Shown: one piece after another, positions 48 to 57,261 of the stretch | How positions within the stretch are numbered: position 1 is the first letter of the stretch | Layout: the number at the start of each line of letters is the position of its first letter | From: Amoebophrya sp. A120 | Taxonomy: Eukaryota; Protista; Dinoflagellata | Direction: 5' to 3' | Length of the DNA stretch: 64,000 nt | Assembly: GCA_905178155.1 (NCBI GenBank) | Contig: CAJINV010000001.1 | Location: 12,135,832-12,199,831, forward strand | Made by a program: the position numbers and the translations under genes | Notes under the pieces: generated by a model | The model's input: only the letters and a program-made list of their open reading frames with translations | What the model was told of the DNA's origin: nothing | Database searches by the model: none

Positions 48-3000
48 ATGGCGCGAACAAGACGAAACGACGAACTGGATTCACTCATATCATCCCCCGG
101 TTATGAGACGACAGAATGTCCTTTGCTCTCCCTCCCCCCCTCATTTGATGTCATGCGAGTTTAAAAGTTGTGATGCAGATGAAGCTGCTACGAAACTCTT
201 GTGATGCTGTCTCAAAGACGGTGCCGTTCAAATCAGGGAAAGAGACTCACTTGTGCCCCCTCATACCCGTGGACGGTCGGACAAGAACGTGTTCGATGAG
301 CTACTGGAGCAGGACGAGGAGGAGAAGGACCGCGCCGCTGCCGCGGACGACGCGGAGAACGCAAAGTCGACCGCAAACAAAGAGGACGCCGGCTCGCAGG
401 CTACGAGCCCCTCCGCCGTCTCCTCCTCGCCGGCTGCCCCCTCGGCGCCGGCCGCACCGGCGCCCGTGCCCTACAAGGCCCTGGATCCGAGACTGAAGCC
501 CTACGCACTCGCGGCCGCGGGCGATCTGGCGGGGACCGGCGCCCCCGACAGCGACGACGAATTTGCCGTGAATAAAAGCCTATCAAATGCAAAAATGTAT
601 GGGTCTGGAGGAATGCAACCTGTGATGCTGCGTTTGGATTCCAAAAAAATCTGTATTGCATGAGCAGCAAATAAGGGAGTGCAATTTTTGCTACGGGAAG
701 AGGGCACTTGTTATGCGGAATAGGCATCAAGAAGCCCTCAAAAAATCTCTGATGCTAGGGCATGCATCACAGACGTCACGGCTCATTTAAAACTTGCATG
801 ACAAGTCTCAGAATCTTCCAGACCCAGACATTTTTGCAGTGCATAAAGCCCGAAGGAGCAGGCCCCCGACCAGCACTTCGAAGCGAGTCTGATCGTCCGC
901 GATAGGGCGATCGCGGCGGGGCACTACCTAAACGTGACCGGGGAGAAGGGGTTCATCACCCTCCCGCCCGCCTTCCAGGGCCGTCCGCTCGACTTTGTCG
1001 CGGAAACCATCCCCGACACGACGCGAGCGAAGTCCGCGGTGGAGGTGCAGCGACTCGGGCCCGGCAGAGACAATTTGAAGGACGTAAAGATCCGGAAAAT
1101 GTTTGATCCGTTGTTCTCCTCTCTCCGGCCGCGCTCCATGATGCCAAAACCGTACCGCCTCTTCTACCAGCAGCCGCAAGTGCCGGAAGAAGAGCTGGAA
1201 GCCACGATATCCTCGCCGTTGCGCACCAGAACTTCTTCCGGAGGTGTTGGCGGGGGACCAGCAGCAGCCCCCGGTGCAGCTGCCAGCAAGCTGTCCCCGT
1301 TTTCAACATCTTCGCCGTTCGGCAGTCGGCGCGCCACGAGGAATTCAATTTCCGTGAGCGGCGCCGGCCCCGCGGCCGCAGACAAAAATACAACTCCCGC
1401 GGGGAAGTTTATCGACCGAAAAGACGCCAAAGGGTATTTGGACACCCCGCAAAGCGCGTACGCCCCGGGCGCCGCGGTGCACTTTGAGAAGACGCCGCAA
1501 AACTTGCAGCGGTTCGCGCTGCGCCGCACCGACATCGTGAGTGGCACGCCGGATGCGGAGCTGGTGCAGACCTTCGGCCCCGACGTCGTCCCGGAGGTCT
1601 TTCCCTACTCGCGGAAACTCGTGTCGGTGTCCGAGTCGCTGAAGACCAGCTACGGCCGTCCGCCGGAGCACATCAAGATGCAAAGCAGCTTGGACGTGGA
1701 GCTGCAGGAGCCGCGGCCCTTCGTACCACAACATACGGTCATCACGGACGAAAATCGGTACGAAAACGACGGTATGCATGGCAAAAGTATCGTACTAGTA
1801 TAAATCGCATTACAAATTTGCTCAGCATGAGAAATGCAATTTTTCATGCTGTTTTACCTTGGAACGGAAATTTGTAATGCATGACTGCGATTACTACCAG
1901 TACGATACTTTTGCACAGGACAGACGGCGAGGACCCGAACGCGGTGAAAAAGGCGAAGCCCTACTACTACCAGCAGCTGCAGTATGGGAGTGTCAGGATC
2001 GAAATCGACAAAATCGAAAAACTTGCAATGCATAAAATGTAGGGCACGTAAGGCCTGCGTTGGGGAGAAGGCAAATGAGACCGATTGCAAGCCTGTTTAG
2101 GGGAAGAAGACGCGTTGCCAGAGCAGCATGACAGGAGCAGCCTTTTTTGCCCAAACAGCATGACAGACTGGATTTTGCAGCTCCCGAAATTTGTGATGCG
2201 CCAGCTGAAAACTGAGGGCCCAACTGGTATCGATTTTATGCATCACAATTTTTTCGATTTTGTTGATTTCGATCCTGACGCTTCCATATGCAGAGGACAG
2301 CGAGTACCGACCTGACGTACCCGATCAACGTCTTCCAAGACCTCGACGGCGCGAAGTTCTACCTGCGTGGGGACAAGAAGGAGCGGAAGAACGAAGTAAA
2401 CTGGTCCGCCTTCGACGCGGCCATCGAGTGGAACCAGGACACGAGGTTGAACGTGTTTCAGCAGAACCTGTGGCGGCCGATCACTTTCCCCTGGTATCGG
2501 GCGGGAGTCGACGAGCGCGGCCTGCGCGTCCGAGTTGCTTTTTCCTTGTCCGTGCCGACGAAAAAGGCCGAGCGGGCAGCTTCGTGGGAAATCAAGTTGG
2601 TGGCGGCAGGCGGTGGAGCAGCAGCACAGGCCGGTACTTTTTGCTCGTATTCCTCAGGGTGTTCTTCTTTTTCATCGAAGTCATCCAATTATGTAGTCGC
2701 TGATCTTCGTACCACACGATAGATACGACTTTGTCACATGATATCTTGTGCTTTTCCTATGTTGTTGCTACTCAATTCAGTCTCGAACGAGGGTCCTCCC
2801 GATCCCGATGCTGACCCTTTCGCCGGTCTCCTGCTGTTTCTGAAAGTCAGCGACGTGGACAAAAAGATCGTGGTCAACGACGAGGAGTACGGTGGTGACG
2901 AAATCAAACAGCTCGTTGACGGCGATCGGGGCTACCAAATCTTTTTCCGCTACAGTTCAAGCGAAAGGGAAACCTGGGACATCGTGTTTCACAGCCCCGG

Positions 3001-3728
3001 GATACCGCTCTTCACGGTCCGAACGCCGGTGCTGGGTAGTGGTCCCGAGCCCGCTGTGCTGGACTACATCACGTGCAGTGTCAGCACTGGCGTGAGCGCT
3101 TTCCTGACACCGTACACGCTGCCCCTGTTCTATGAAGCGTTCGACAGCGGCGGCGCGCTCATGCTCGGTACAACATTAACATTTTTTTCTTTTTGCACCG
3201 CACTGCGGACCGCTTGATTTCTTGATGTTGATTCTTCGCTGCACACAGCTCCTTCATCGGGCATTCATTCCATCCTTTTTCACTGAAGCTTTACTGTTTA
3301 GTTTTTCTCGTCACATCACACCAGCCCACGGCAAGGGTACGCTATCGAGCGCGAAGGATCTGACTCGGCGGAGAAAGATTATGAGTGAGCTTTCGAAGAA
3401 AGTCCGTACCAAAGACGAGGAGTACCTGTTCATAACCTGCCGTGTGTGCGGCTGGAAGCAGCGGCAAAACCTCAGCCAGGATATTCAGCGGTGCAAGCGG
3501 TGCGGCAAGAGCAACCCCACAACCTACCCCTCCATTGTGCGCGTCATGGAGCGGATGCGCGAAAACAATGATCCGGATGCCGAGGATTTTGTGCACTATT
3601 GCGAGAATCAGGCTCCGCCCCAGGACACGCGGTCTTGGCCGACGCGGAAATTTCAGTCAACGAACGACCACAAAGCCGGAAAAAAGAAAGCGGACTTTGA
3701 CGTGGCACTGCTCGGGTTTCAGGAGTAG
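48..3728 (+). CDS. Multi-exon hypothetical protein with a C-terminal CxxC...CxxC zinc-ribbon-like motif
   Basis: Exons 48-101, 271-580, 851-1772, 1928-1982, 2294-2633, 2781-3167 and 3325-3728 join in one open frame. This needs removal of four TIR elements (each plus one TSD) and GT-AG introns 2634-2780 and 3168-3324. The C-terminus has CRVC...CKRC. ATG 48 may not be the true start. Confidence 0.75.
102..265. mobile_element. Introner-like non-canonical intron, family F (164 bp, degenerate TIR)
   Basis: Ends tatgagacgacagaatg... and ...cacttgtgccccctcata. TSD is ccggt (97-101) / cccgt (266-270). Internal tgtgatgc/tgtcatgc motifs. Removal joins ...SSPG to GRSDKN in frame. Confidence 0.7.
581..845. 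mobile_element. Introner-like non-canonical intron, family A (265 bp)
   Basis: TIR tatcaaatgcaaaaatgtatgggtctgga / tccagacccagacatttttgcagtgcata. TSD aagcc at 576-580 and 846-850. Removing 270 nt joins ORF 253 to ORF 934 (NKSPKEQ). Confidence 0.92.
1773..1922. mobile_element. Introner-like non-canonical intron, family B (150 bp)
   Basis: TIR tatgcatggcaaaagtatcgtactagta / taccagtacgatacttttgcacaggaca. TSD gacgg at 1768-1772 and 1923-1927. Removal gives NDGEDPN in frame. Confidence 0.92.
1983..2288. mobile_element. Introner-like non-canonical intron, family C (306 bp, ~55-bp TIR)
   Basis: TIR tatgggagtgtcaggatcgaaatcgacaaaatcgaaaaa / ttttcgattttgttgatttcgatcctgacgcttccata. TSD tgcag at 1978-1982 and 2289-2293. 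Removal gives QLQRTAST in frame. Confidence 0.92.
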
Positions 3729-4425
3729 TAAAGACATGGCGTGGACGAGGTCCGTCGTGCTCTGCTGTTGCTGGTCGCCGGGGGTCGTTCTTGTTGATAT
3801 ATGCTCTGGACGCGTTCTTGCGGCACTTGTGTGATCATTTCGCAGCAGCGCAACTGCTGGAGATGAATAGATGCTTGCTCATGCCCGAGCGCAGTGACAC
3901 AAGAACATACACGCCGCGTGCAAAATTGCCGCTGATACTTCTTTCATCATGTTCTTGACTAGTCACGTGGAAAAGAACGAACGCACGACATTCTCAGATC
4001 TGATTAGACATTTCTTTTTCTTTCTTGGATCCAGGACCAAACACCACTGCTGTCAAGCAGATGAAATGATCTCGCAGATCCAACAATCGAATGCTTCAAA
4101 GGACTACCTCGACACGTGTACACATGATCGTATCTCGATTTGCCGAAGAGCAAGATCATTCGAGAAGCGAGTATTTCCGCGGCTAGACAGAAATGGGACC
4201 AAGATCAAGATGATCCAAAGTACCTTGAGGGCGTGGAAGATCACACGCAGCGTTCATGAATTCCTGGTATGCCCGTCCGCGAAACATTTCCTACATGATT
4301 GTGACCCATTTTTTCAGGAATCAATCGACGACCTGAGTCCTCCTTATGAATGTATGAAGGTTCGAAAAATTTGTACTAGTGTTGAGTATAGCAAGCGATC
4401 TGGTAGTCAAAGTTCGGCGAGAAAG

Positions 4426-7129: not shown

Positions 7130-7268
7130 CCTTCAAAACTTCAAAACTAGGCTTACGCTATCAACTACCAGTAATGCAGAGCCATGCAGCATTTTATCCA
7201 GCGCGCATGGACCGCGGAGTCATCTTCGTAAATGTCTGTCACCGTCTACTCCATAGCTGTTTGAAAAT

Positions 7269-10200
7269 ATGTTGCTGAAAAGAATCGCATTCATCGCAGT
7301 TCATTTCGTCCCACGGCACCTTGTTAAGTTCGTCACGGGACGAGTCGGAGGCGGCGCGAAAAAGAGTTCCAGTTCACGAGAAACTCCTGATTCCTCAGTT
7401 GGGCCGCAGGCCGAGCTGGAAGACGATACACAAGAAGACTTACAGAATCAAGACCCCGCACCACCTGATCCACCTGATGACCCTGCGCTCTCGTGGCTGT
7501 CGTTTGTTGCGTCAATTGATTCCAGTGCGGACCTCGACCCTCCAGTAGACAAGGAAGACCCCCATGGTGCGCAAGACCCGCTCGTAAAACATGACCACGA
7601 CCGCGTAGATCCGCACGTTGAAGTACTGGATGAGAGACCCCCTAGGCTTCGTGGGACCTCCAAAATCCGAAGGCGTGACGTGGAGGTGCCACAAGAAAAG
7701 GTGGATCTCATTTCAAATAGAACATCGACGTTCCTCGAACAGCGCGAAGACGACGCCGACACAAATTTTGCCGCCGATGTTCATCTTGAGCCACCGTCAA
7801 GCGATGCAACTAATGCAACTTTAGCTGCCGCGAGAAAGACAAAGAAAAGAGACCATAGCAGCCCTGCCGCTGGTGCTACTACAAGTGCTAGTCCAGAGCA
7901 AGGAGACGCCGAGGATGAGGACTACAAAAATATTATTGATAACGCAGAGGATGAGGACATCTCGACTTTTCTGCACATCAACACGAATACCGGCACTTCG
8001 AAATCGAGGCTCGGCGGTTTTTTCAACAGCATCGCCAGCGCTTTCCGCACGAAAGCGGGACTACGCGCCGAACTCGATGCCGAAATGGAGGAGGGTCGGA
8101 GGCGCATTGCGGCACTGCAGTCTCTCAGCAACGACACTCTGCAGACGCACGCGCAGCTGCTGCTGGCTGCCCACGCGGAGGACAGCGCGGCAGATAAGGA
8201 TGGCATGAGCGCACAGTTGTCTTCCGCCAGCAAGATGCTTCCGGAGCTGCTGCCGCCACTGCTCGCGATGAGCAGACTGACGGAGGCGCTCAAAGAGCAA
8301 AACCAAGGGCAGGGGACAAATCAGTTGAGCAGAGATGAAAATGAACACGACGGCGCATCTTCTCCGTCTTCTAAAAAAGATGTTGGAACCCCCACCACCA
8401 CATCAGCTGCCCCAGGTGACGAAAATAAGGAAGCGGCAACTGCAACAAAGCAGAACGAGGCGGTCGTTGCGGACGGAGGTGGGACAAGAAGGGAGGCGGT
8501 CGGCGATGGCGGAAAGAACGACGGGGACGCCCTCCACCGGGACGGGGATCCTGCAGTTGATGAACCCGAAACTCAAGCTGCGATTGCGAAACAGGACGCC
8601 GTGGAAGACCGGCAGATGGAAGAGATGCAAGAGAAGTGGAGGAGCGGGCAACTGGGGAAGAGCGAGCTGCAGAAGCTCGCTGACCAAGAGGGCTTTCTGC
8701 TGGAGCTCGCACGCAAAGTGTTGCAGGACTACGCCGCAGCTTTGGACGCGATCGACGCCACTCTTCGCGGAGCAGAGGAAAGCGCTACTGCTACAAAAAC
8801 TTCGGGTCCTGAAGGTGCTCTCGATGAGTCTAGCTCCGCGACCCAAGAGCAGCTGTCCTCCTCTTCATCATCTACGCCCGCAGCATCAACGGTCCCCCGA
8901 AGTGGTGGCGACCCGGACAAGTCGGTGGTGCGACATTGGATGAGGGGCATGAAGATGATGAACGACGGGCTTCAGCGCCTGTGGGAGGCCGGATCCGAGG
9001 ACTCCGCGTTGGTAGAGCCTGGCGACAAAAGTGTGATGGAAAGGAAGATAAACGGGTTTGCCCTCTGCCTCAAGGCCGAACTGCTGCTTGGCACGCCCGG
9101 TCTGCGACTTCCCGGCCGAACCGAGGACAAAAAAAACGCACCCCCGCCGGGGATGTTAGATTTTTCTGTTCTCGGAAACGGCCTACTGAACACGTTGGTC
9201 GCCGACATTGAACGCGCGCGCAAGAGCCAACAGGACGATTCCTGCACGGCCGATGGGCGTCCGAGAACGAGCGTGGTAGTTCCCGGGTTTCTGGAGCTGC
9301 TTGGACTGTCCTTCTCCGACGAACAGGACCCGTTCGTCGTAACATCGATAACGCCCAAATCGGTCGCCGCCGAGAGCGGGGTGCGGACGGGCGACCGTCT
9401 CGTGGCTCTGCTGCGTCCGGGCGTGCAGAACCCGGATGAGAAAACGATAGTTGTGAACGGCAGCAGTGGGGAGGTGGAAGAAGATGAAGTTCCGATCGAC
9501 CAGGTGCTGGAAAGAATTCCGTGGGTCGCAAACAACCCGGACAATGTTTTGTCCTCCACGTCGGTCGTCTCTACTTCATCTGTGGGGGGCGCGCCAGAGC
9601 AAGTTTTGGAAAGAACATCGAGTAGCTTTTTTCAGGAAGACGAAGCAGGAGGTACTGGCGGTGTAGAAAGAAATCCGGATGGAGATGATAGTACAACAAC
9701 TGCGGCTCAGGCAACGGCGGTCGAAGAGTCCTCGAACCCCATATCCTCGCCCGCCACCAAGAACAAGCGCAGGCGTAGAAGGACGAAAAGAAAAACTTTC
9801 ACAACCGCACATCTTTCGGCGTTCCTGCGGGGTGTTGCAGACAAAGGGCCAGCAGCACCTCCTTCTTCTTTTCTTGACGATGGTGTCGAAACGACCACCA
9901 GCAGCAAGGACCTGCTTGCTTCGACGGAATTCCGCAAGTCTGCTCTCGAGAAGATTTTCAACGAGTTTCTGCTGCCGCGAAACTACGACCTCGTCTTCAA
10001 GTCGGAAAAGACAGCAGCACAAATTGCGTCGGCACGCCGCCTGCGTCTCGACCGCCTTCCCTCGCGCCTGGCCGCCACTGCCGCTGGCAAACTAATCGTC
10101 GACCCGGTCACGAAACAGGTGATATCAAAAACAGGCCAGACCACCGGCACCAACTCCGACAACGGAGGGGCTTCATCTTTCGTTGGAAACGAAATTCCGC

Positions 10201-11795
10201 TGGGCTCGACATTGGAAAGGGTTACACCAACCGCAGATCCCGAGGATGTGGCGGCAGATCTGAGCGACGTTCTTGACCTCTTTCCGAAGAGTACTTCTAA
10301 GGCCCCTTCTGCGACGGCGACATCGCTTAGGCTGGAAGAAGACTTAACAGATGAAGGTTCAGAACATCAAGAAGGAGGTGGTAATGAAGTAGCCCGCATT
10401 TTGCGGAGCTCCCGGCTGCCTGTGATTCTAGATTTTGTTGAGCCGGCCGGAGTTGTTGGGGCAACAGGAACAGACGAATCCGCACCCGGAGCAGCACATC
10501 ATGAGAGGGACGCAACTGATCTACCGGCAAGTAGAAGCGCCGCCTCTGACGAAGCAGAAAAAGATAACAGAAACGGGGCGTCTTCTGGAACACCACCTAA
10601 AAGTGCGTGGTCAATATCAAGTTCAACGTCGTCGTTGTGGTCTCGTCTGACCGGCGCAGGGACACCTGGGGAACAGAAAGACAGCAGTAGTCCACCTCCT
10701 AGTGACTCCACGACCAGTGACCCGGCGGCGGAGACGCCGGAGGAAAGAGCGAAGCGCCTGACCAGCGAAGCCGAAATAAAGCGAATTCGTGACCAGCTCG
10801 CCTGTATCTGCGGGCCAAACGGCGAGAAGGGAAGTGGAAGTGCCACTGTGGCAATGATGAGACGGGCAATGAATGTCTTCATGGAAAGAATGGACCGAAC
10901 GCTGGAAGGAGCGAATGACACGCAGGAAGGTGACGCGACTGAACATGAACCCGAAGTAGAGGCTGGAGCACACGACAAGGACGAACAAAGAGCGAAGGAA
11001 TCTGCAAGTGGTGATTTCTTGGGCGAAAAGAATATAGAGAGAACCGGAACTACTGGTACTGCCGCAAGGAGAGCAGCTGCACCAGACCACACTGCCTCGC
11101 GGGAGGACAACAAAGAGAGCGAGCCGTTCGCTCCGGAAGGAGGCGCACCAACGACCCGTGAGGACAAGAAAGAACCGCAGGACAGTGTCCCGCAGCAGAA
11201 CGGTATGAACAGTGCGGAACAGGAAGAGGAACAAGAGTCCGCGTCGTCCTTGCAGCAAACTCCGGGACCACACGAAGATGATCCTCAGAAGACTCACGAA
11301 AAGGAAAATGGCAATCATGCAGACAGTGCCGAAGAGATGCGACAGGCCTTTGCGGCGACATTGTCCCAGTTTTTGGTTCGCACCATGTCCGGCTTGCCGT
11401 TGGCGTCACCAGCAAAAGGCACTACTTCAACTTCTTTCGCGGACGAGGAGGAAACTGAGGAGGTATCCTGCAGAAAAGTAGTACACCCAGACCAGAAGAA
11501 GAGTCGTCGAGCTTCTGCCTTTTATTTGCCTGCTCAATCTCACATAAAATTGTCTCCTTTGCAGTCATACGAAAACCTTTTTTTTTCTGGTATGGGTGTA
11601 CTTTTGTGGCGGATAGAAGGCTGTCGAAGAGCAAGTGGAAATGATACAGCAAGCCGCCGTATTCTGAGTAAGAACGTCCGCACCCCAAAGTCTTATTCAA
11701 GATGGAGATTCTGCAAGACAGGTCCGGAACATTTAGGATTCGTCCTCACGCATCAGAAGTTTCTTTGGCTGCGCAGTGTAGTAAGTCGTACCTAG
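7269..11795 (+). CDS. Large low-complexity protein with a PDZ domain and possible signal peptide
   Basis: 1508-aa ORF. PDZ-like LGLSFSDEQDPFVVTSITPKSVAAESGVRTGDRLVAL at ~9295-9415. N-terminus is moderately hydrophobic. The 3' end may instead use a GT-AG intron 11463-11619 and stop at 11667 (EETEE|AVEEQVEMIQQAAVF*). Confidence 0.75.
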   Translation: MLLKRIAFIAVHFVPRHLVKFVTGRVGGGAKKSSSSRETPDSSVGPQAELEDDTQEDLQNQDPAPPDPPDDPALSWLSFVASIDSSADLDPPVDKEDPHGAQDPLVKHDHDRVDPHVEVLDERPPRLRGTSKIRRRDVEVPQEKVDLISNRTSTFLEQREDDADTNFAADVHLEPPSSDATNATLAAARKTKKRDHSSPAAGATTSASPEQGDAEDEDYKNIIDNAEDEDISTFLHINTNTGTSKSRLGGFFNSIASAFRTKAGLRAELDAEMEEGRRRIAALQSLSNDTLQTHAQLLLAAHAEDSAADKDGMSAQLSSASKMLPELLPPLLAMSRLTEALKEQNQGQGTNQLSRDENEHDGASSPSSKKDVGTPTTTSAAPGDENKEAATATKQNEAVVADGGGTRREAVGDGGKNDGDALHRDGDPAVDEPETQAAIAKQDAVEDRQMEEMQEKWRSGQLGKSELQKLADQEGFLLELARKVLQDYAAALDAIDATLRGAEESATATKTSGPEGALDESSSATQEQLSSSSSSTPAASTVPRSGGDPDKSVVRHWMRGMKMMNDGLQRLWEAGSEDSALVEPGDKSVMERKINGFALCLKAELLLGTPGLRLPGRTEDKKNAPPPGMLDFSVLGNGLLNTLVADIERARKSQQDDSCTADGRPRTSVVVPGFLELLGLSFSDEQDPFVVTSITPKSVAAESGVRTGDRLVALLRPGVQNPDEKTIVVNGSSGEVEEDEVPIDQVLERIPWVANNPDNVLSSTSVVSTSSVGGAPEQVLERTSSSFFQEDEAGGTGGVERNPDGDDSTTTAAQATAVEESSNPISSPATKNKRRRRRTKRKTFTTAHLSAFLRGVADKGPAAPPSSFLDDGVETTTSSKDLLASTEFRKSALEKIFNEFLLPRNYDLVFKSEKTAAQIASARRLRLDRLPSRLAATAAGKLIVDPVTKQVISKTGQTTGTNSDNGGASSFVGNEIPLGSTLERVTPTADPEDVAADLSDVLDLFPKSTSKAPSATATSLRLEEDLTDEGSEHQEGGGNEVARILRSSRLPVILDFVEPAGVVGATGTDESAPGAAHHERDATDLPASRSAASDEAEKDNRNGASSGTPPKSAWSISSSTSSLWSRLTGAGTPGEQKDSSSPPPSDSTTSDPAAETPEERAKRLTSEAEIKRIRDQLACICGPNGEKGSGSATVAMMRRAMNVFMERMDRTLEGANDTQEGDATEHEPEVEAGAHDKDEQRAKESASGDFLGEKNIERTGTTGTAARRAAAPDHTASREDNKESEPFAPEGGAPTTREDKKEPQDSVPQQNGMNSAEQEEEQESASSLQQTPGPHEDDPQKTHEKENGNHADSAEEMRQAFAATLSQFLVRTMSGLPLASPAKGTTSTSFADEEETEEVSCRKVVHPDQKKSRRASAFYLPAQSHIKLSPLQSYENLFFSGMGVLLWRIEGCRRASGNDTASRRILSKNVRTPKSYSRWRFCKTGPEHLGFVLTHQKFLWLRSVVSRT

Positions 11796-12238
11796 TAGCT
11801 ACTTCTGCATATGGAAGTCGACCAATCCACTCTCTGACGCATGCGAGATTGATGTCAAGAACACACAGCCGCTCCCATGTGTAGTTTTTCGTAGCCTGAG
11901 CTCATTGCCTTTTCCTCTCTGGTCGAAGCGTTCCTCGGACGGAGATAGGCTTCGTGGGCCAGGCGTACGCGCCGCTTCGCAGAGCTGTGTTGCTGGTCTG
12001 CCAGCTGCTCGGAGCGTGTTGGGGCGTTCTTCTGTGCAGTGCCTTGTGCACCCCATGGATGCTGGACCCCGCACTCCCCGCCTCGGTAGGGCAGTCTGTC
12101 AAGCATGTTGACAGGTGGTCGTCTCCAAAAACGACTAGGAAACTACACTTCCCATCCGGAGCCGCGTCTAGTTCAGAGATTTTCCAGGCATACATGTGAC
12201 AACACGTCTCGGGAGGTCGTGAAGACGTTTTTACTCAG

Positions 12239-14000
12239 CATACACCGACGGTAGCTTCTCCTCTTTCCTCGAGCGCCGAGCGTCATCCCGGTCGTCATCG
12301 AGAAAGCAACCCAAACTGAGGACTTTTGGAGACGTTGCGTTGATGCGCAAGATATCCTGTGCAAAAGTATCGTATTCGTAGTAATTGCAATCATGCATTA
12401 CAAATACAAGTTTTATTCCCAAGGTAAATCCGCATAAGAAATTTTATTTCTCATGCGGAGGGAATTTGTTTTGCATTTTTTATACGAGTACGATACTTTT
12501 GCAATTCATTTTCATACAAGAACAAACGCGACGCGAACGCCGCAAGGGCCAGGGCAGATATGCCGGAGGAGTTCGATGAAAATTTGGACTACACGAGTTG
12601 GAGTTTCTGGAATGAACCTAAACGGTACAACGACGTGAGCACCAAGCTGCCCGAGTTCAGGATGTTTCTTACCGAAGGGAAAGGGGACGATGTCGGTTTG
12701 GAAGCACTGCAGACTACGGGTGGCGCACTGAAAGCCCTGATCGGAGTTCTGATCACCGTCGCGGCTTTGGTTGTCGGTGTGAAATTCAGCGGTCTTGCTA
12801 TGCTCATCGGCACGCTCGGGCCGGTGGCAGCTTTGATCATTGTCGGCGCTCTTCTCTTCGGGTACTTTCTACCCAATGCAACAATGTCTGGGTCTGGAAA
12901 AATGCAGAACGTGCAAGGAGAACGGTCTGCAATGCATGCAGAGCATGACAACACCGCGGAGCAGGCATCTCCATGACCTGCATGGGAAATATCAACATCT
13001 TAATCTTTCCTTCGGGGAAAAAAAAAATATGCAACACAAGTTCCATTTGTCTAGGTACTCCCGACTCAGCATCACAGGGAAGTTGCAATGGTCCAGACCC
13101 AGGCAGACATATTTGCAATGCATACGTGAGCCTTCCAAGCAACTTCGCCTGGCGATGGACCTCCTTTTTCGTGCACCTTTTCATCTCTGTCGTGATTTTC
13201 TTCTTCGTCTACATCTTTTTCTGGGTTTTGAAAAACCAGAAGTTGGTTCTCTTTTGGATCGTCATGTCTCTTGTTGTCCTTCCTTTGCTTCACTTGGGCG
13301 GTGGACCATTCCTAGTGCTGGCGGGAATTCCAAAATTCGGCGCTCTCGCGTCTGTGGCGGCTTTCCAACCTCCAGTGATGTTCGCAGGAGTCGTCAACTT
13401 TCATCAAGTATCAAATGCAAAAATGTCTGGGTCTCCTGGAAGATTGCGAGACTTGTCATGCTTGTCTGGCATGACCAAAAAGTTTGTGATGCGTGTCCAA
13501 GAAGAGATCCTTTTGCCTGTCATGCAAAAACGCGGTTTGTCATGCGAGAAACGCAACAAAAAAACGCGCAGATATTTCTCATGCTTGGCTGTGCAGTACA
13601 GAGCATTCCCTATTCCCAACGCAGCACTACAAGTTTCCAGACCCAGACATATTTGCACTTCATATCAAGCGGTGATCGGCGGCTCTTGGGCGGCGAACCA
13701 AATCTGGAAGATCTTTGCATTGCAAAAGTATCGTACTAGTATAAATTGCATTACAAATTTTTCCAAGAACAAAAATGCAATTTGTCATGCTATTTCAGGT
13801 AGAAAATTGGATTTGTCATGCATATCTGCAATTAGTACGAGTGCGATACTTTTGCACAGGATAAGATCCTACCATCGGCATATCTCATGGAAAAAGAAGC
13901 TAGCAAAGTTGTGCCGAAACAAGCGACAGGATCATTTTTGTCTTCATGTAGTGTGAGTGTGGAAAACGATGAATATGTAAAAATGCGTCAGGTGTTTTAG
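12239..14000 (+). CDS. Multi-pass membrane protein interrupted by four introners (5' end unresolved)
   Basis: Segments 12239-12352, 12522-~12865, ~13130-13408, 13670-13713 and 13869-14000 join in frame. Several transmembrane stretches (LIGVLITVAALVVGV; FFVHLFISVVIFFFVYIFFWV). A probable acceptor lies at 12238, but the upstream exon was not identified. Confidence 0.7.
12353..12516. mobile_element. Introner family B, inverted orientation (164 bp)
   Basis: Starts tatcctgtgcaaaagtatcgta, the reverse complement of the right end of the other B copies. TSD caaga at 12348-12352 and 12517-12521. Removal gives MRKNKRDA in frame. Confidence 0.9.
12870..13124. mobile_element. Introner family A, inverted, TSD decayed (255 bp)
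   Basis: TIR tacccaatgcaacaatgtctgggtctgga / tccagacccaggcagacatatttgcaatgcata. Flanks ctttc and cgtga no longer match, but removing the element plus 5 nt is still in frame. A GT-AG intron 12862-13130 is also in frame. Confidence 0.85.
13409..13664. mobile_element. Introner family A, inverted (256 bp)
   Basis: TIR tatcaaatgcaaaaatgtctgggtct / ccagacccagacatatttgcacttcata. TSD tcaag at 13404-13408 and 13665-13669. Confidence 0.92.
13714..13863. mobile_element. Introner family B (150 bp)
   Basis: TIR tttgcattgcaaaagtatcgtactagta / tacgagtgcgatacttttgcacaggata. TSD agatc at 13709-13713 and 13864-13868. Confidence 0.92.
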
Positions 14001-16281
14001 TTTTTTTAACAGCACCCTTTGAACCCTTTGCCTTTGTTTCGTCGCAAACATCAAGCGACGTGCAAAAGCGCTTATTTCTTTCTCTTTGCGCCAGAAAACA
14101 GCATTTCCGCGTTCTCATGCGGTTCGTTCTGCACGATCGGATCATGACAAGAAATAGTACAACTAAGTAGAAAAACTACAGAAATAAAGAACATTTTGTT
14201 TCCGAGCATCTAGGGCTAGCGTCTTTCCAATTCATTCGGACAGGGAGTTCGGCATGCAAGAGTTTCTGTGGAACTGAGAGTACTGGGAAAGGACGTATTA
14301 AACGCAAATATGGCTGGGCCTGGATGAAACCGAAGGAGATGTTTTGCGCTTGCATACAGGTTTTGGATGCTTGCAGATGTTTGTCATAAAGGTTTTTTGG
14401 GTGCCTGGGATGCAGGAGGATCTACTAGCGTCACAGGTTCAGCAGAATTTGCTCAAGGTCAACATCCTACATTCGTGATTCACTCTTGACACACATAGTC
14501 CGAGGTGGGCATCTTTTCCTGCTCGCGCTACAGGTAGACAGATAATTTATATGTGAAGACCCACAGCAAGCATACCTTTTGCTTTTCAGACCCACGCATA
14601 TTTGCATTCGATTACAACAATACGGCGGAGGAATAACTGCAGGCACAGCGGATGGTCGAGAACGTCTTCGGAGAAAGCAGGAGAAGCATTTGCATTTCGT
14701 GGTGTGTGCTAAAAACAATACAAATACGAGGTCGACCAGATCCGAACCACGCACCTGCGCTAGTCACGAAGAGCCACAAATGCTTGATCATCCAGTAGTT
14801 TCAGTTTGTTTTATTTCATTTGCGCTCGAAAAAACGACTTTAGTTTACGGCTCTCTTTTCAACAAAACAACTTTTCTCAAAAACACGTTTGTTATTTACG
14901 ACCGCTTTTAGTTTTTCCCTTTTCGCGACCTCTACCTTCATCTGTTTTAAAATTTTTCTAGGAGTTTAAGGCTCTCAGCAGAAGTAAGTTTTTCTAAGAC
15001 GGGTGCCAAAGCAGCTCCGTCAGGTTGTGCTTTTTATTGAAATAGCGCTAGACACATGAGATGAAAGAACGACTTTCAACCGGTTCCATGTGACCACTCG
15101 CAACAAACAAACAACAAACAAATTTAAACAACATGACGACGACGACGAGTGGAGAAAAAAAAATAAAGCTGCGTGCGGGTGTCGCATGGCATGTTGGACG
15201 ACCGAAACATCAATATCAATGCATATGTTTTCTGTTCTAAGAGTCAGTCCGCGTTCCTTCAAATACTTCGGGAGGAGGTTTTACTACACTCGTTGTGGTA
15301 CTTTGCGAGTCGGTGTGCTGTGATTAATCGTAATGATAGGGACCGTGAGTTCAATGCACGTTTTTTGTTTTCCTTTCCAATATTCCATATTGATATTCAT
15401 TTTCATGGTCTTGTTTGATCGTATTCGCCTTTCGTGTGTCGGGCGATTTGATTTCGATTCGTGCGGGGTTTGTAGGAAGGTACAGGTAGTTTTTTCAATT
15501 TTTCAATCGTCTGCGTTCCATCTTATCATGGAGACGAGGAACGCGTGAAATCTGTGCGCCCAGGAATTATGACTTGTAATACCTAGAAGAAAACTATCGT
15601 CTTACTTGTTCGAAAGGTGAAAATAAAAATCAGGAAAATCAGAATGTTGATACATTGGTATCTATTGGTAGAAATGGCATCCGTATCTAATGTTGCATTT
15701 TCGTGATCGTGGGTGACTACAGCTCGTTGACAAAGAGCAAATGTTTAAGTATCACGAAAAGTGCGCCTGCGTACACTTTTCATTGTCTAGTTTAAGAGCA
15801 TGAATGGCAACTCGTTAAACAAGAAATCGTTTGTGTCGTCTTCGACTACAGCCTCACATACATGACCGTAAACCTAGTAGCTCTACGTTGCTCGGTCTTG
15901 AACGTAATCTGAGTCAGCTGTTTGCTATACGTTGGTTGGGCTTAAAGATCAAAGGAAAATTCGACGCGGCTCGCGCCAAGAATAAGAAAGATACCTGCCG
16001 CCATAGATAGCGCTTCTTCCTGGAGTTTCCCAACACTGTCTTGCCGATTCCGCTTCCGCAGCAGGAGAACTACTTACTTGTACGTAGCAGATCTTCGTAC
16101 GAAAGCCTTTATATTCTTTTCTACCGTGTATGTTTCCCAGTCAGTTGTTTTTTTGTGTTTGGGTGTAGCCAGGGAGATAGTCTTAGATTATATTCGATCA
16201 GAACAAAGAACTTCAAGGGCCTCGTCCTCTCATTTTGTTGACTCAAATTTTAGAAAAACCAAGAATAGAGAAGAGTATGAA

Positions 16282-17620
16282 ATGTGGGCTCCTTGGGGTG
16301 GTTGGCGTGCGGCTCCTACGAGTTACGCCGGCGTCTGTGTGAACTACTCCATGACCCCCCGCCAGCGCAAGTACGTCAACGATTTCCTATGAACTGCAAA
16401 AGTATCGTACAACTCGTATAAATGCATTACAAATTTCCTCAGCATCAGAAATAAAATTGTAATGCGGATTTCCCTGAAGAAAAAGATTTGTAATGCAAGA
16501 CTTGCAATTTATACGAACGAATACGATACTTTTGCGCAGGATATTTCCAATCCGAGTACAATTGCGAGTATCGTCCCTGCGTGTACGTGGATCCCATCTC
16601 CGACAAGTACGATTTCGTCCCCGATTACCCCGTGGTGAAGAAAGAAACACACTGTCATTGGGAAACGCCTCGGGTGCCCCCGTACCACCGCGTGCATTTG
16701 CCTCTTCCCGCAAACACTAGGTTGGTGGCGGGTCCTCGCGGGCACAACAGCCGGGACCGAATGATCATGACGCAGCCGCCTGCCATGGTACTTCGTTCTA
16801 ACGACCCATCGGTTTTGATACAGAAGTTGCGCAACATTCGGTTGTTTGAATCTCATCTTCACGATGCATACTTGTAGTTACAAGCAACTGAAATAAATAG
16901 AGAGCAAACTCATTCATCAGATTAGCGCTCGGAGCAGTTCCTCGCGGTCCTACAGCTCGGACCCGCACTATGACGCCCCCGTGCACCGTCTCTACCAGCA
17001 GGACAGCGCGGCCATGCCCGCACCGTTGCGACGAAAGTTGCGCCGACACCAGCAGCGGCTGCGCGTTGAAAACGTCGCCGCGCCGGGGATGAGTTCGCTC
17101 CCCTTTGCGAACGACGAGGACCGGTTGATTCCACACCCGGGATCCCGGCGTCGAGCGCACTCTGCGCATGTGAAGAGACCCAACTGGCGGGTGCTCGGCT
17201 CGGAAGGCATGGACGAACCCGTGCAGCGGGCTTGGATGGTACAATTTAGTGAAAATTTATCTTGCTGCTGTCCTTGCGAAGAATAGCGAAGCCTCAAGCA
17301 AATTCCGCCGATGCATCGATACTAGGGAATATGTTCAATGTTGATGCATGGATGTTGGTTCTGGTTGTACTTATCAAAAGTAAAACGCATTTTCTACGAA
17401 TTATATGACTTTAAACTGTAACTGCGGTCACCCTCACCACCAGGTGAAAACTGGTTACGACCCGAACTGGAAGCCTTTGCCGAATTACTCCTCCGCCTGG
17501 AGCCGCCCGGGATTGAACTTTCTTCCGCGCTCAATCGACATGATGCCTACCGGCACCGATTGGCAGAGCGCGCACTGTCGCACGCGGCAGGAACGTGCCT
17601 TGCTGAAGCAGGGCTGGTAA
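16282..17620 (+). CDS. Hypothetical protein (MWAPWGGWRAAPTSY...)
   Basis: Exons 16282-16387, 16549-16787, 16921-17238 and 17444-17620 join in frame after removal of one introner and two GT-AG introns. Confidence 0.75.
16388..16543. mobile_element. Introner family B (156 bp)
   Basis: TIR tatgaactgcaaaagtatcgta / tacgatacttttgcgcaggata. TSD tttcc at 16383-16387 and 16544-16548. Removal gives NDFQSEY in frame. Confidence 0.92.
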
Positions 17621-39910: not shown

Positions 39911-40624
39911 GGGTGGAAGTCGCTGTGAAAGAGAAGGAAGTTAATTATGCAGGCACAATTCAAGGAAGAGAAACAGTGAGTATAGAGAAACAGAAAATGA
40001 ACCGCTGTGTTGAGCAACACGACAGGATTCAATCGAAACTTGATGAAGAGATCGGTGTGAGTTTTTTTGAAAGGACGCACACACACCATCCGAAATGAGC
40101 GAGAAGGAATGATATTAATGCGGCTCAGAAGACATCCTCCGTCCGTCTCCGTTTTTAGAAATACGATCCTGATTCCGACCACGCGCGGGAAGTTGCGTCG
40201 ATGTGGCCAAGAGTGCCTCGCCCTTCGGCTCTGCAAAGGCATGGGCCACGACTCAAAATGATCGTTTTTCTTTCGTCGGCGCTACCTGAACAGGAGAATG
40301 GAAAATTTTGACCTGCACGTAAATACGCAGTCCGATGGAAAAAATTTTGTGTTGACGCAGCACATACAGTAGGTAGCGCGAGAATGATAAAAGATTGATA
40401 CCTGGTGAGAACAAAGCCGTGTATGTTGGAGAAAAGAGAGGATATGCCGCGTGGCTGATGTGGATAGACGAGAATCTACAATCAAAAAAGCTTGTTTATT
40501 CCTTTCCTATCTTTGACTTTGCAGTCATGGTCCCTTCCGTCTGTCGGTTTGTTGTATCGCAGACATTTAGCGACGTGGTATATTTCAGGTGACACCCTCG
40601 TCTTTGATTTGCTCGCTCATCAAC

Positions 40625-46742: not shown

Positions 46743-46879
46743 TAGAGTGCTACTTACCTGTGTGAAGCTGCTGCTTTGCTTAGTGAAGTAGGCACATTCT
46801 TCAGTTACTCCCTTATTTTCAAACGAACTGCAAACGTCTACCGTAAAGCTAAGGCAAATCAAAGAAACACTCGCAAGAA

Positions 46880-49800
46880 ATGAATCAGGTTGCATGTGAC
46901 TTCCCAGCGCAAGTAAAGTCCATCTGGATGACGGAAGAAAACAAGCGGCTGCTGAAGGCGCAGAACCCGCGGCTCGGGCAGGAAAGGCTGAAGATCCTCC
47001 TGATCTGCGAGTACGCGCCGTGCGAGTTCCACGGGATGGCGGTACGCCTGAAAAATTGCGTACGGGAACTGAGTAAGGATCACGATGTCCGGATCATGAC
47101 CTCGAGAAACAAGGAGCAACTGCAGAAGGAGGGCTTCAACGATGTGCACACCATCGACTTGTACCGACAGATGGGCTATCAAATGCAAAAATGTCTGGGT
47201 CTGGGAGGATGGAACTTGTGATGCGTCCTGTGGGTTACACAAAAATCTGTGCTGCGTGATTGCCAAAAGTTGTCCTTTTTTGACCAAAATGAGCGGGAGT
47301 TTCTTATGCAGGATAAGCATGATAGAGACATCGCAGAAGTTGTCATGGTAGGTCCTGCATCCCAGACCTCATGGGGCATGGAAAATATGCATGACAAGTC
47401 TGCATTCTTCCAGACCCAGACATTTTTACATTTGATATGGGCTACTGCGTCCAGAACTTGTGGAACCCGGGAAACAAGCTGGTAACATGATATCGATGGA
47501 TTTTCATCTGAAATGGTGAAAATGCGAAAAAGCATGTTTCTAGGAGCACAATGTCGCATATGGTGCAAATTTACTGGTGGAAATCAAATCTTAATCTTCA
47601 CACAGTGGTACGCGCCAAACCTGAATCTGGTCGAGAACTTCTTCGATTTTCAACCCGACGTGGTCCACGTTTTCTACCCCTGCATCGTGACACTCCCCGT
47701 CTTCGCGCTGAGCTACTTGCTCGATGTTCCCGTCTACTGCTCCCACCACGTAGACATGACTTACTACATCGGGAAGTACTGGAAGAGCGCGCTCTGCCGG
47801 CGGATGTGTTACTTTTGGTACACGTTGCACGCGCGCCTCCCGGCCTACCTCCTCGGCGACATCAACGTGGCCCCAACGAAGAACGCCCTGGACAAGGAGT
47901 TCGAGGTCCTGTACGCGAACAGTTTTTTGCGCAAGTGCGTCCAGCTCTACGAGTCGTTTGGGTGCTTGTCCTTTCCCGACGACAGCCCGGTGTACGCGGA
48001 TCTGCAGCGGCAGCACCTGGCGCAGCAACGTGAGGAAGAGCTGCAGCTCGCCGCGGAGGAGGAATACGCGCAGCAGTTTGACTTCGTCAACACTTTGGAG
48101 ATGGACAGTAACTACCCACCCCTGCCGCCGTCCTCCGCGCGGTCGTTTGAGCTGACCGCGTGTGACAGTCCGTGCACGACGGCATCGCACCGCTCGGACA
48201 GCGACGGCGAGGAAGAAGAGCTGCCGGAGGTCAGCCTGGACGAATTTCGACAGATGACAAAGTGCACAACAACTACTAGTACTACTGCGTCGCCGGCTCC
48301 GTCCTCATCTGCACAAATTTTGAGCAACAATTCTTTCAGCAAATCTTCTTCTGGTGCCAGCAGCAGCTGCGGCAGTGCCGACGGGAGTCCGCAAGTAAGC
48401 AGGAGAACAACGACAAAAGACCACGAGCTGCTGCGCGACTCGCCGCAGATTCTGAACCTCTCGCCGAACAAAATTGACAAGCTGAGCTTTGGCGAGAAGC
48501 TGCGCGCCTCCGCGAGAAACTTTACTCCCGAGTACTTGCAAAAGTACATGCTGCAGCGCGGACTAGAGGGAAGTAACGATACGGGCAGCAGTTGTTGTGC
48601 GGTCGAGCAAATGAACCCGCCCAACCCGTCGGGTTCTGCGATCCGCAAATCCGTCTCCCTCGACAGTTTGGAAGATAGAATGACCGCCAGTACGTATTCC
48701 GGCATGTCGGAAGACCTTACCAGCTCGCGAATGACAGTCGAGACGAGCAGCAGAAGAGCTAGCGGAAACAACTTTCTCCCCGGCGGTAGTAAGCTGCAAG
48801 CCGGGCCGTCCTTTGACTTCTCGGACTTTATCATTCCAACCTCCGTGGGCTCGTCGTTTCGCGGATCCGATGCTGGAGCGGTAGCGGGGAATGCGACTGC
48901 CGCAAAAACGCCTGTGCTCGCGGAAACCAGCCAGAACCTGATTCGCGGAAACATTCCAATGCACAAGGACGCGAAAATCATCCTCATGGTGCAACGGGTA
49001 AGGACATAATTGATTCCTTACGAAGCCTTTTTTTACTACGGAATGAAAGAAGTGCAAGAATGAACGTGGATGTGATTTTTCCAAAGTACATCACAAGTCA
49101 AGTCAAGCAGTTTGCAGCTAAGAACATGTACGTAGGCAGTTGGTGCTACAAGAGCAATAACCATGAACTCTCTCAGGTTGCCCCCGAGAAGCGCGTCGAA
49201 ATGGCGCTGCGCCAGATGCCCAAGCTGGTTGGAAAATTTCACTTGGTGGTCGTTGGTGATGGCCCGGCTTTCCAGCACTGCGTTGACGTCACCACAAAAC
49301 TGTACCAGTGTGGGGAAAAGAACATTCTGCAGAAGAACTTTTTGTTCCAAGACAACGACGAAAAGAAGACGAAGGTATCGCATGATCAATCGCACTTGAG
49401 CAAAGACATCAACGTCACCTTTCTCGGAATGGTCGCAAACGCTAGACTCCCGGTGCTGTACCAAAACGCGGATTTCTTTCTCAGCTGTGCGGTGTCGGAA
49501 ACCTTCGGTACTATTAAAGCAGAATTTAAAATATTTGGATAATTAGTAGTTTTTGCTGCTGTTGTTTGCTTCATTCGGTCTGTTCGTGTTTTCCCTGTGC
49601 CTGCGTGGTAGTTTGCGTCGAGTTGGCGCTACTCATTTTCAAGACGATGACAAGCTGCTGGTGTTTAGTACTGTGTCACGTGATGAAGAACAGCGAGCAA
49701 AAGAACCTCTCAGCGCCTCACGACCCATCAAAACAAAACAGGCATCACCGTAATCGAAGCGCTCTCGTGCAACCTGGTGCCGCTGCTGGCCCGTTGCCAG

Positions 49801-52465: not shown

Positions 52466-52516
52466 TACTTGACCGACCTCCTCGAGGAGCTTCTCTACCA
52501 CATAACACTATTCAAA
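52466..52516. repeat. 51-bp perfect direct repeat, copy 2
   Basis: Identical to 51159-51209. Confidence 0.95.
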
Positions 52517-54346: not shown

Positions 54347-57261
54347 ATGGTGGAACAATCTCCGAAACAAGCTACAAAGGCGAAAACAAGGGAGGCCGCG
54401 GCGCAAGCTTCGTCCTCTACTTCCAATGAGATGAAACAAGACCAGCAGAAGGAGATGCTGGAGAAAAAGGAGGCTATTTCCAGCAGCCGCACGCGGGCGT
54501 ACAAAGATTCATTGAAGGCGATGAAACAGAACAACTACAGTGGGTTGGCGTCGGCGGTGGACAACGATGACGGCGTGCCGGCCCATTACCCGGTGATATG
54601 CATTGCAAAAATAATATCGCATGGTCGGAATTAAAATTATAAGAATTGATCACACGGATAATTCGTGTGGCAGATTGAAACTTTTGAAAGTCATGGAGAA
54701 ATAGCATTTGTCAGCTGAGCATTTACTACTTGCACAAGCAAGTACATCTTTCACGCAGTGTACTTGCAATTATTTCGACGAGTGCGATACTTTTGCTGTG
54801 CATAGGTTAGCAGTGGGGGCAACACCTACGCGAGTATCTTCGGCTCCCAGGATTCCACCGCGTACAGTGGGTCTACCACCTCTACCCTGGATTCCGCGGG
54901 CTATGCGACCTCGGCCGCGGCCAGCGTGACGGGGCCCTTGCCGCCACTCGCGCCGGGTTCTAGTACCGCAGGACCTGCCGCAGGCGGGTTGCACCACCAG
55001 GGCGGGGGTCAACATGGTCAACATCCACAACATGGTGGACCAACTGGTAGCCATGGTGCTGCGAACAACCTTCCGTACGGTTGCAACCCCTACCACGGCC
55101 AGGACGTGAACCACGCCGCTGTGGCAAGTTACGCACAACAGATGGCAGTCGCCGCGGCCATGCAGAACTACTACAGTGCGGCCGGCCATGCGCACGCCGC
55201 GGCGGCGGCGAGTAATCCGCTCGGGATGAATCACGGTGCGAACACCTTCAATCCCGGCCCGAACGGCTTGATGCCGCCCTCGATACTGGATCATCAACAT
55301 CAGAGCAACCCGTTAGCCGGCCCCGGCGGACCACCCGGTGCAGTGGCGGCCAACGGATTCCACCCCCAGATGCCGAACCCGTACCATGCCGCGGGTGCCT
55401 ACGGGCTGAGTGCGGCGATGCATGGATTTGGTTTTCCGAATGCGTACCAACAGGCGTACCAGCAGCAGCAGAACAGCTTTCTCACCGCCGCCGCGCAGGC
55501 CCACGCGGCCGCGCAGGCACAGGCTGCTGCCGCCGCGGCAGCGGCAGCCTCGAACAACCACGGTGGATCTAGTTCTGCGGGGACCGGCGGCGCGCCGCAG
55601 ACGCCGGGCAGCAATGCGGGCGGTCTGCCACAGATGCCGCAGTACGTACCCGTCCCGGTTCCAGTCCCGGTCCCGGTGACCCAGATCCACCAACTCCCCG
55701 AATACGAACTGGAGAAACTGATACTGTCGAAGCGGTACAACAAACAGCGCATGCTGGCGGCGGCGAGCGCGAGTAAGTTCTGGGCGGCCGGGGCAGGCGT
55801 GTACAACAACGGCCCTGGTGCGGCGAACAAGGAGAATCTGAATCAGGCCATGCTAGGGGGCAACCGCCTGGATTACACGCAGATGCGGGGAGGCGGTGCA
55901 GGAAAGGGCGGTGGACTCGTCGACAGGGACAACATCTGGAACAATTTTAACCCGCCGAAGCAGCACGCGGCCGGCCCGGGGCCGCAGCAGAACGCAAAAA
56001 TGAAAATGTACGGACAGGATATCGGCTCGCAACTATCCAGTGCCAGCACCACACCAGGTGAGGACATTGTTTCTTTTTTCGAATATGTTTATTGGGTGGT
56101 TTACTTTTTTGTGACGTAGACGCCAGACCACCAGCACCTCCACCTTACTCTGTTCAAGATTCATGTATGATGATGAGACAAACGTACGAGCTGGGACGTG
56201 CTGAACTTGCTGATGTATATGGTCTTTCTTTGATAGATACAGTAACAGTTGCAGATACAGTCAAGCCGCCAAAGCTCAGCTACGCCCCTGAAAAAGAAGA
56301 AAATGAAACCGACCTCGAATAGGTGACGACGCCAGCAGCGGCATTACCGACGAAGGGCTCTGTGACGGGCCGCCGACCACTGTGATGATCTGCAATATCC
56401 CGAGTTTATTGACGCAAGAAATGATGCTGGACGTCATCAACAGTTACGGCTACAAAGGAAAGTACTCATCTACTTTTGCTGATGTTTTAGTCGACATCTC
56501 TGCGGAAGTGAAGGAAGTCAAGCTCTAGCTCAGATGATCATTCACGACCACGATTAGCCACTGGCAGGTCTTCTGAAGATCATCAATGAATATGAAGATA
56601 CTACTCGATCTACTTCGTTGCAAAAGATCTACGAAAAATGAAAAATGTGCTTACTTGAGGTACGACTTCTTCTACCTGCCGATCGATTTTTCGACGAAGG
56701 CGAATTGCGGGTTCGCGTTTGTGAATTTCCTGATGCACGACGACATGCAGGGGTTCATGAAGGTGTTCCAGAATTTGGCCTTGCACGAAAAGTCGAAAAA
56801 ACGAACCAAGTGCGTCCCGGCGGATCTGCAGGGTTTTGAGAAGAATGTCGAGTACCACCGCAATTCGGCTTCGAATCGGGACACCATTCCTGCGGAATAC
56901 CGCCCGCTGATTTGGGATGCCGATGGTACTTACAATGGAGCCGTTTTTGTACTGGAAATGCGGTTGGCGTTGGTGGTCCATCAATCGCATACGGATTCTT
57001 GGATCGATCATATTTGATTGTAGTTCACTTGCAGGCACGACATAGTGGCTTTCCGTTTTTCACGAAATCTGATTTGTTCTGAGTGTTATGTCCGCAAAGA
57101 GGATTAAGTTAGTGAACAAACTTCTTCTACTGTTTATTCCTGCAGGTACCGCCTCGTGTCTGCCCCCGCCCTCTAAGAAACTGCGCCCGATTTTTCTCAA
57201 ATCTTGGAAGAAAAATGCAGCCACGCGACGCGGCCCGCCGGCGCGCAATCTGGAAGGTTGA
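54347..57261 (+). CDS. Mei2-like RNA-binding protein (RRM_2) with a Q/A/G/H-rich low-complexity N-terminus
   Basis: TTVMICNIP...YDFFYLPIDFSTKANCGFAFVNF...ADLQG is the Mei2 RRM3 signature. Exons 54347-54592, 54806-56057, 56323-56461, 56660-56925 and 57146-57261. Confidence 0.9.
54597..54804. mobile_element. Introner, family B-like (208 bp), whose TSD supplies GT-AG
   Basis: TIR tatgcattgcaaaaataatatcgca / tgcgatacttttgctgtgcata. TSD ggtga/ggtta. 54593-54805 is a 213-nt GT...AG intron. Confidence 0.88.

Follow-up and report, generated by a model that had tools for sequence, protein, structure and literature searches.

A likely fixed cut register for the non-GT-AG introner elements of Amoebophrya sp. 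A120

How can transposon-like copies that lie inside exons, and that mostly offer no GT-AG borders, be removed from transcripts so precisely that the host reading frame is restored? This question is raised by a 64,000-nucleotide stretch of the Amoebophrya sp. A120 genome (contig CAJINV010000001.1, assembly GCA_905178155.1; hereafter the window), in which a first-pass annotation had described fifteen elements, bounded by terminal inverted repeats (TIRs) and a 5-bp duplication, as precisely removed non-GT-AG introns. They are introner elements of A120 itself, an already published class, and not merely akin to the Amoebophrya introns to which that annotation had pointed: after element removal the sirtuin encoded in the window equals protein P0001, named Amoebophrya sp. 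A120, in all 304 residues, with a first exon that is 100% identical. The elements, their repeats and their splicing are already in print, and what is tentatively new here is a likely cut register, in which the removed piece begins one base before the terminal TAT and ends four bases after the terminal ATA (hereafter -1/+4).

All fifteen elements were found at their described starts with TAT...ATA-type ends, and their blastn clusters number seven, in keeping with the at least seven sequence families first proposed; four further elements had been missed and are marked in the list below. The flanking 5-bp duplication is real, but its decay, earlier ascribed to 12870 only, is commoner: the repeat carries one mismatch at 102, 28390 and 54597, two at 38401 and three at 12870, and is perfect in the other 10 of the 15 and in 10 of all 19. 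The statement that GT-AG can be read within the duplication window only at 54597 holds among the fifteen; over the 19 elements it is readable in two (11464 and 54597), which sets the set apart from introns with U2-type GT-AG ends. The elements are as follows, without assigned strand, the joints being those of the RNA-like contigs discussed below.

102..265: element, 164 bp, duplication CCGGT/CCCGT, weak TIR; protein P0121 fits removal with five letters
581..845: element, 265 bp, AAGCC, of one family with 12870, 13409 and 47177; an RNA-like piece starts at 845; fits P0121
1773..1922: element, 150 bp, GACGG, right end ACA; removal from length arithmetic and P0121
1983..2288: element, 306 bp, TGCAG; removal from length arithmetic and P0121
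11464..11615: element (missed at first), 152 bp, GGAGG/GAAGG; GT-AG readable at 11463-11619; joint 11460 to 11618
11660..12242: element (missed at first), 583 bp, CGCCG/CACCG; joint 11656 to 12245
12353..12516: element, 164 bp, CAAGA; joint 12347 to 12517
12870..13124: element, 255 bp, decayed CTTTC/CGTGA; removed piece 12869-13128 (CT..TG); joint 12868 to 13129
13409..13664: element, 256 bp, TCAAG; joint 13402 to 13664
13714..13863: element, 150 bp, AGATC, left end TTT; joint 13713 to 14236 with six letters, 13869-13874, between
13881..14236: element (missed at first), 356 bp, CGGCA/CGGAC, damaged ends; 361 letters skipped
14296..14613: element (missed at first), 318 bp, in the 3' untranslated region, duplication GGACG/ACAAC nearly gone; joint 14294 to 14618
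16388..16543: element, 156 bp, TTTCC; joint 16381 to 16543
22673..22892: element in the sirtuin gene, 220 bp, TCTGT; joint 22667 to 22893
22998..23303: element in the sirtuin gene, 306 bp, GCATC; joint 22992 to 23304
28390..28552: element, 163 bp, CCACA/CCACC; joint 28384 to 28553
38401..38558: probable element, 158 bp, ATTTC/ATTGT, weak TIR; open frame only
47177..47437: element in the glycosyltransferase gene, 261 bp, TGGGC; open frame only
54597..54804: element, 208 bp, GGTGA/GGTTA; GT-AG possible at 54593-54805; open frame only

Removal was followed in four RNA-like contig sets from one sample, derived from complementary DNA (cDNA), over positions 11300-28800; the RNA status of these runs is a guess, and they behave as RNA, in that ordinary GT-AG introns are skipped and one intergenic bin is empty. 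All 12 elements of this region are skipped as element length plus 5 nt in all four sets, and GT-AG is possible in just one of the 12. Fifteen of the 16 joints were listed: eleven rows cover the 12 elements, three are GT-AG introns and one is a short-sided joint inside 13409 (13434-13638, in X5 and X6), probably from a shorter copy located elsewhere. The claim of precise removal of each element with 5 nt is hence seen directly for eight of the original fifteen. For 581, 1773 and 1983 it follows from piece coordinates and length arithmetic: one X3 contig holds a piece that starts at 845 and ends at 1767, with 399 letters where the genome has 1012, and the gap of 613 equals 155+311+147, that is, elements 1773 and 1983 plus one GT-AG intron. 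At 1983 a GT-AG alternative of the same length exists; P0121 matches the reading with element plus five letters at 838 of 838 residues, a match that also covers 102, 581 and 1773. At 38401, 47177 and 54597, removal is predicted from the open frames only.

The further claim that such removal restores the host frames, conserved sirtuin motifs included, is confirmed by the identity of the spliced sirtuin with P0001, and its GSSL and VNLQ stretches align to homologues. Retention would shift the frame or introduce a stop at 14 of the fifteen original elements (13409 does neither), and of 17 coding elements tested 16 would disrupt the frame if kept. Neither outcome named in advance as fatal to the idea, that mRNAs keep the elements or that all junctions map to nearby GT-AG sites, occurred: pseudogenes are rejected on the RNA joints together with the intact proteins, and an in-frame GT-AG pair lies within 15 nt at 9 of 19 elements, yet of the five with a listed joint only 11464 uses it. 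Copies are spliced in both orientations, 12353 and 13714 being members of one family that lie in opposite orientation in the same gene and are both removed. Removal of an element with its five letters needs no GT, no AG, no intact repeat and no single orientation.

Where exactly the cut falls is harder to say, because a perfect repeat leaves the position of the joint ambiguous and only decayed repeats can place it. At two junctions, 12868 to 13129 and 14294 to 14618, there are 0 ambiguous letters, and both place the cut 1 nt ahead of TAT and 4 nt past ATA; the second removes 14295-14617 (GT..AA) and, since it lies behind the stop codon, its five extra letters are not enforced by the reading frame. 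At the first, an in-frame pair (GT12862..AG13130, 7 nt upstream and 2 nt downstream) goes unused. Two or more left-copy bases must be kept at 11464 and 11660 and no more than four at 28390, all compatible with -1/+4, while 102 needs at least three left-copy bases to be kept, a bound based on annotation (P0121) at a site where the A25 orthologue also has Gly. In sum, two junctions fix the register, four more allow it and 13881 does not. At 12353 the terminal ATA lies 6 nt beyond the register of the inner stem and the 3' cut follows that ATA; the stem is therefore not all that counts, and the terminal triplets matter too.

In the -1/+4 register the removed pieces read N-T-A-T ... A-T-A-N-N-N-N. 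Across the 19 elements +2 is T in 19, +3 A in 18, +4 T in 18 and -7 A in 19, a composition that partly reflects how the elements were chosen; positions +1 and -4..-1 are unconstrained, with G at +1 in 6 of 19 and AG as the last two letters in 2 of 19, and 16388 has no G at either end in any register. The RNA-confirmed ordinary donors of the window are GTAC (4) and GTAG (1). It is likely, judging from these few junctions, that a fixed -1/+4 register is set by the TAT/ATA-capped hairpin.

Several results weigh against this reading. Only two junctions fix the register, and 13881, an element with damaged ends, takes at most three left-copy bases by its TIR register and breaks the rule unless those ends re-pair or a mismatch is hidden by the alignment; 12353 makes 'distance from the stem' too simple a description. 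The annotated borders of large A120 families show AG in about 24-34% of copies and GT in 26-30% (Gozashti et al., 2025, PMC12130899; among 21 of 58 rows), an AG share above the roughly 10% that -1/+4 predicts, though placement inside the repeat is ambiguous. A branch-point consensus was looked for in the element ends and none was found. The excess of G-U over A-C pairs that selection on RNA pairing would leave is absent (9 to 11 cells), and a test of mutation direction in the second strain described below, asking which repeat copy holds the A/T base, counted 7 cases in favour of -1/+4 and 12 opposed to it, or 3 to 3 in the strict set.

The elements themselves were also compared with chance. 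A scan for TAT/ATA ends with a duplication of at most one mismatch gave 14 pairs with a TIR score of at least 25, one of which pairs the ends of two different elements, and five block shuffles gave 0, 0, 0, 1 and 0 pairs at that score; an unbiased search, open to any perfect 5-bp repeat that encloses a TIR, returned only these elements. The original fifteen fold with z from -1.4 to -11, and 102 and 38401, with their weak TIRs, appear the least sure as judged by their letters. With three shifted elements left out, the TIRs pair in 43 of 48 cells at positions 1-3 and in 115 of 128 at 9-16, and in only 42 of 80 at 4-8, a conservation that may equally reflect the needs of a transposase. The candidates at 52636, 56407, 61052 and 34763 were weak, with scores on a level with the shuffles, and were not accepted. 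Additionally, a lone 3'-type end lies at 28043 (score 15.4), with no partner or repeat found, and lone 5'-type ends lie at 45395 and 59720.

With TIRs, a fixed duplication length, no coding capacity and many copies, the elements have the properties of MITEs (miniature inverted-repeat transposable elements), that is, of non-autonomous TIR transposons. No transposase family was found by Pfam among 75 window frames, nor any Pfam match in the frames of 11660; Rfam gave no match in the window, and two TIR motifs had none in viral contigs. In metagenome contigs, a TIR motif had at least 132 matching stretches. The DNA-like run X1, which covers the window at a depth of about 27, reaches summed depths of 5,000-63,000 over several element bins, as expected of elements repeated in the genome; the bin that holds 11464 and 11660 is not raised.

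A second assembly extends these observations. Three of ten frames looked up cluster at 90% with A120 proteins and are 93-100% identical to them in their main segments, which makes this genome a close strain. It holds 295 distinct elements in place, of which 235 have a perfect 5-bp duplication although the scan required TAT and ATA ends and no repeat. Among the 129 copies called as coding, GT-AG is possible in four, and of the 105 perfect repeats of such copies, 27 have G as their fifth base and 10 have AG at bases 3-4, frequencies near those of the flanks; the second-strain copies have no splice-site bias. Flank frames called separately need five kept letters (modulo 3) in 44 of 58. One family has 19 copies in the same and 23 in the opposite orientation, another 15 and 7 in the two orientations. 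Gene-strand calls in this strain are imperfect: the method was right for 10 of 12 window elements over a loose threshold, part of them in the training set. Comparison of three A120 proteins with second-strain loci met only perfect duplications. Separately, locus L064 holds at 476-2934 a 2459-bp copy of the 581/47177 family, with a perfect TTCCT duplication, that splits a host exon rejoining in frame. This copy, found in 509 kb of loci, carries a stop-free frame of 415 codons (1514-2758, minus strand) that was without match in Pfam and atlas searches and may be cargo, a nested retroelement piece or a mobilising gene.

As a whole, the explanation that on balance we slightly favour is that non-coding MITE-like copies, with their TIRs and 5-bp duplication, are likely cut from pre-mRNA together with exactly five flanking bases (the one preceding the terminal TAT and the four following the terminal ATA), and that a hairpin-guided spliceosome is probably what cuts them. 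Because one and four make five, an element that duplicates 5 bp would leave no scar at any insertion site. The TIR would supply the +2 T and +3 A of ordinary donors (GTAC, GTAG), with only +1 and the 3' end free; the stem would bring the ends together where U1 and U2AF normally act, the hairpin would stand in place of GT-AG signals, a U2/U5/U6 spliceosome would act as catalyst, and a transposase encoded elsewhere in the genome would spread the copies as DNA. Given removal at the RNA level, we consider it fairly likely that the catalyst is the spliceosome, since +2 T and +3 A come from the TIR, U2, U4, U5 and U6 are retained in A120, and a tunicate spliceosome, which handles non-GT-AG transposon introns (PMC11282704, PMC13326754), has adapted to similar introns. 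Put more generally, there is moderate confidence in a pathway that ignores border dinucleotides and cuts geometrically at -1/+4 of a TAT/ATA-capped hairpin, with a stagger equal to the 5-bp duplication, so that any insertion in either orientation would become a perfect intron, whether through a U1-free spliceosome or through a separate enzyme.

The main rival keeps the RNA-level removal and the register and assigns them to a spliceosome-independent endonuclease and ligase reading the hairpin, as may occur in euglenids; we regard it as unlikely. The lack of constraint at +1, -1 or -2, the orientation-independent removal by a staggered cut across the stem and the neglect of the GT-AG pair available at 12870 all suit such an enzyme, and in euglenid introns, too, the hairpin is offset and excision yields circles (PMC11282704). 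Against an enzyme of this kind stand the match of +2 T and +3 A to ordinary donors, the fact that 11464 is GT-AG in the same register, and a near-complete A120 spliceosome that lacks U1, as if one machine had changed. It is improbable, moreover, that removal is real while the cut slides within the repeat to a half-canonical site, with only the 5-nt sum kept. The 13881 exception, the unsupportive mutation-direction test, the description of the sites as variable in the legend of Fig. 3 of Farhat et al. (2021, PMC7789003) and the mixture of GT and AG labels given by Gozashti et al. (2025, PMC12130899) speak for sliding, but the two repeat-free junctions share -1/+4 with ends as different as CT..TG and GT..AA, the four bounded junctions include that register, at five junctions a cut just behind the first repeat base is excluded, and a constant sum of five without a repeat needs a ruler.

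Two further accounts have very little in their favour. A hairpin with a direct repeat is a known signature of reverse-transcription artefacts, the elements show both, and all the data are based on cDNA, so that the joints could be jumps of the reverse transcriptase across the hairpin, between direct repeats, with real mRNAs keeping the elements. This is highly improbable: the two repeat-free junctions share 0 letters, contrary to what falsitrons show, nearly all coding elements would break the frame if kept, joining restores the sirtuin motifs, one unbranched contig joins seven such sites, and the flanks are in frame in the second strain too. Equally remote is excision from DNA in some life stage, like that of internal eliminated sequences in ciliates. 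The first-pass annotation had proposed hairpin-guided removal from RNA or possibly from DNA; the RNA-like joints uphold the former, and X1 disfavours the latter. The transposon ends, the unspecified life stage of the runs and an X1 comparison restricted to the 15 joints listed, beside 418 others, leave some room for it, but 102, 11464, 11660, 12870, 13881 and 14296 stand in this one DNA-like run inside unbranched single-copy contigs at depth 21-28, none of those 15 joints is an element-free site, and the absence from an expressed DNA copy that marks a ciliate-type sequence is thus not seen in X1. Furthermore, one RNA-like contig retains 14296 at depth 6 beside a joined form at depth 32, and the second assembly keeps its 295 copies in place.

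The host genes and their neighbours are as follows; all genes with a Pfam match or an RNA-supported frame lie on the plus strand, an arrangement like that of the unidirectional clusters described from Amoebophrya.

3..3900, plus strand: 3' part of a host gene with four elements and two GT-AG introns; 838 of 838 residues equal P0121
3898-6681, plus strand: FtsJ methyltransferase (Pfam)
7257..14277, plus strand: host gene, family not assigned, carrying seven elements within the 3' part of its coding region and another within the 3' untranslated region
22004..23453, plus strand: sirtuin (PF02146), 304 aa after removal of two elements, equal to P0001
24420-27314, plus strand: XPG nuclease with UBA domains (Pfam)
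36314-37019, plus strand: ribosomal L19e (Pfam)
40571-41416, plus strand: DSBA (Pfam)
46853-49542, plus strand: glycosyltransferase (Pfam)
56577-57017, plus strand: RRM_2 (Pfam)
60405-62632, plus strand: WD40 (Pfam)

The gene at 7257..14277 is read in a single RNA-like contig of 4724 letters, with a frame open for 1689 codons and a stop at 14275. Its eight elements are packed into 3.2 kb (11464-14613) at the 3' end, separated by exons as short as 17-55 bp, and the first 4.2 kb hold none. The frame around 38401 links through a putative GT-AG intron to an open reading frame ending at 39910, and no A120 protein was found for this gene. A TCA motif stands 7-9 nt before the 3' end in four of the five RNA-confirmed GT-AG introns (2780, 3324, 16920, 17443), possibly a branch point very close to the acceptor. 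A non-element repeat at 14979-15114 has further matches in loci L043 and L045, and in X1 it differs between alleles or paralogues.

With respect to published work, the elements do not differ in kind from the A120 introners of Farhat et al. (2021, PMC7789003), and the organism is the same by protein identity. The parts of that paper drawn on here give 29,850 introner elements in A120, an inverted repeat that starts with TAT and continues with seven looser bases and then AAA, direct repeats of 3-5 nt at the borders (5 bp in the legend of Fig. S19) and non-canonical borders backed by RNA sequencing; they report that neither a U1 small nuclear RNA nor a transposase was found in A120, and that U2, U4, U5, U6 and most spliceosomal proteins are present. 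The repeat motif recurs in the window, where 36 ends have T, A and T at positions 1-3 in 34, 34 and 35 cases and A at 11-14 in 30, 32, 31 and 28, the full A run being absent in ends of 102, 1983 and 22673. Introner families are described there as strain-specific between A25 and A120, whereas the window families are common to A120 and the close strain; the legend of Fig. 3 leaves the border position relative to the hairpin variable or unknown, whereas the -1/+4 register, repeat independence and both orientations are suggested here. A fixed cut register was not found in the portions of the literature searched, and figures 3 and S19-S23 of that study may bear on it. Gozashti et al. (2025, PMC12130899) classify most A120 families, among 21 of 58 rows, as TIR DNA elements, of 150-305 bp and with mostly non-canonical borders, as here; their automated duplication lengths range from 2 to 5 and their splice-site labels conflict, whereas a length of 5 dominates in our set.

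Comparable introns are known from other lineages, as far as the consulted parts of the sources describe them. Nonconventional introns of euglenids share a TIR hairpin offset from the borders, a junction repeat and a machinery that is not established, but they carry CAG/CTG at +4..6 and -8..-6, where the present elements have TAT/ATA at +2..4 and -7..-5; excised circles have been shown there, and removal is followed here in contigs. Introns of Fritillaria borealis are likewise MITE-derived and non-GT-AG, with TIR and duplication, yet they have dominant AG-AC/AG-AT ends, a retained U1 and a duplicated U2AF, in contrast to the absence of preferred dinucleotides here. Introners of Micromonas and Aureococcus also combine TIR and duplication with scar-free removal; their sites are near-canonical, one carried and one co-opted from the duplication, whereas GT-AG is allowed at 4 of 129 second-strain copies here.

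How tens of thousands of non-GT-AG introns are removed in Amoebophrya is an open question in the literature consulted, and the apparent variety of their borders may be largely artificial, produced when junctions are placed within a 5-bp repeat. If true, a single -1/+4 rule would reduce this variety to one consensus (N-TAT ... ATA-NNNN), put right the border annotation of as many as about 30,000 introns, show where branch points or circle junctions should lie and explain insertion anywhere in exons, and the cut register would offer a handle on the removal machinery itself.

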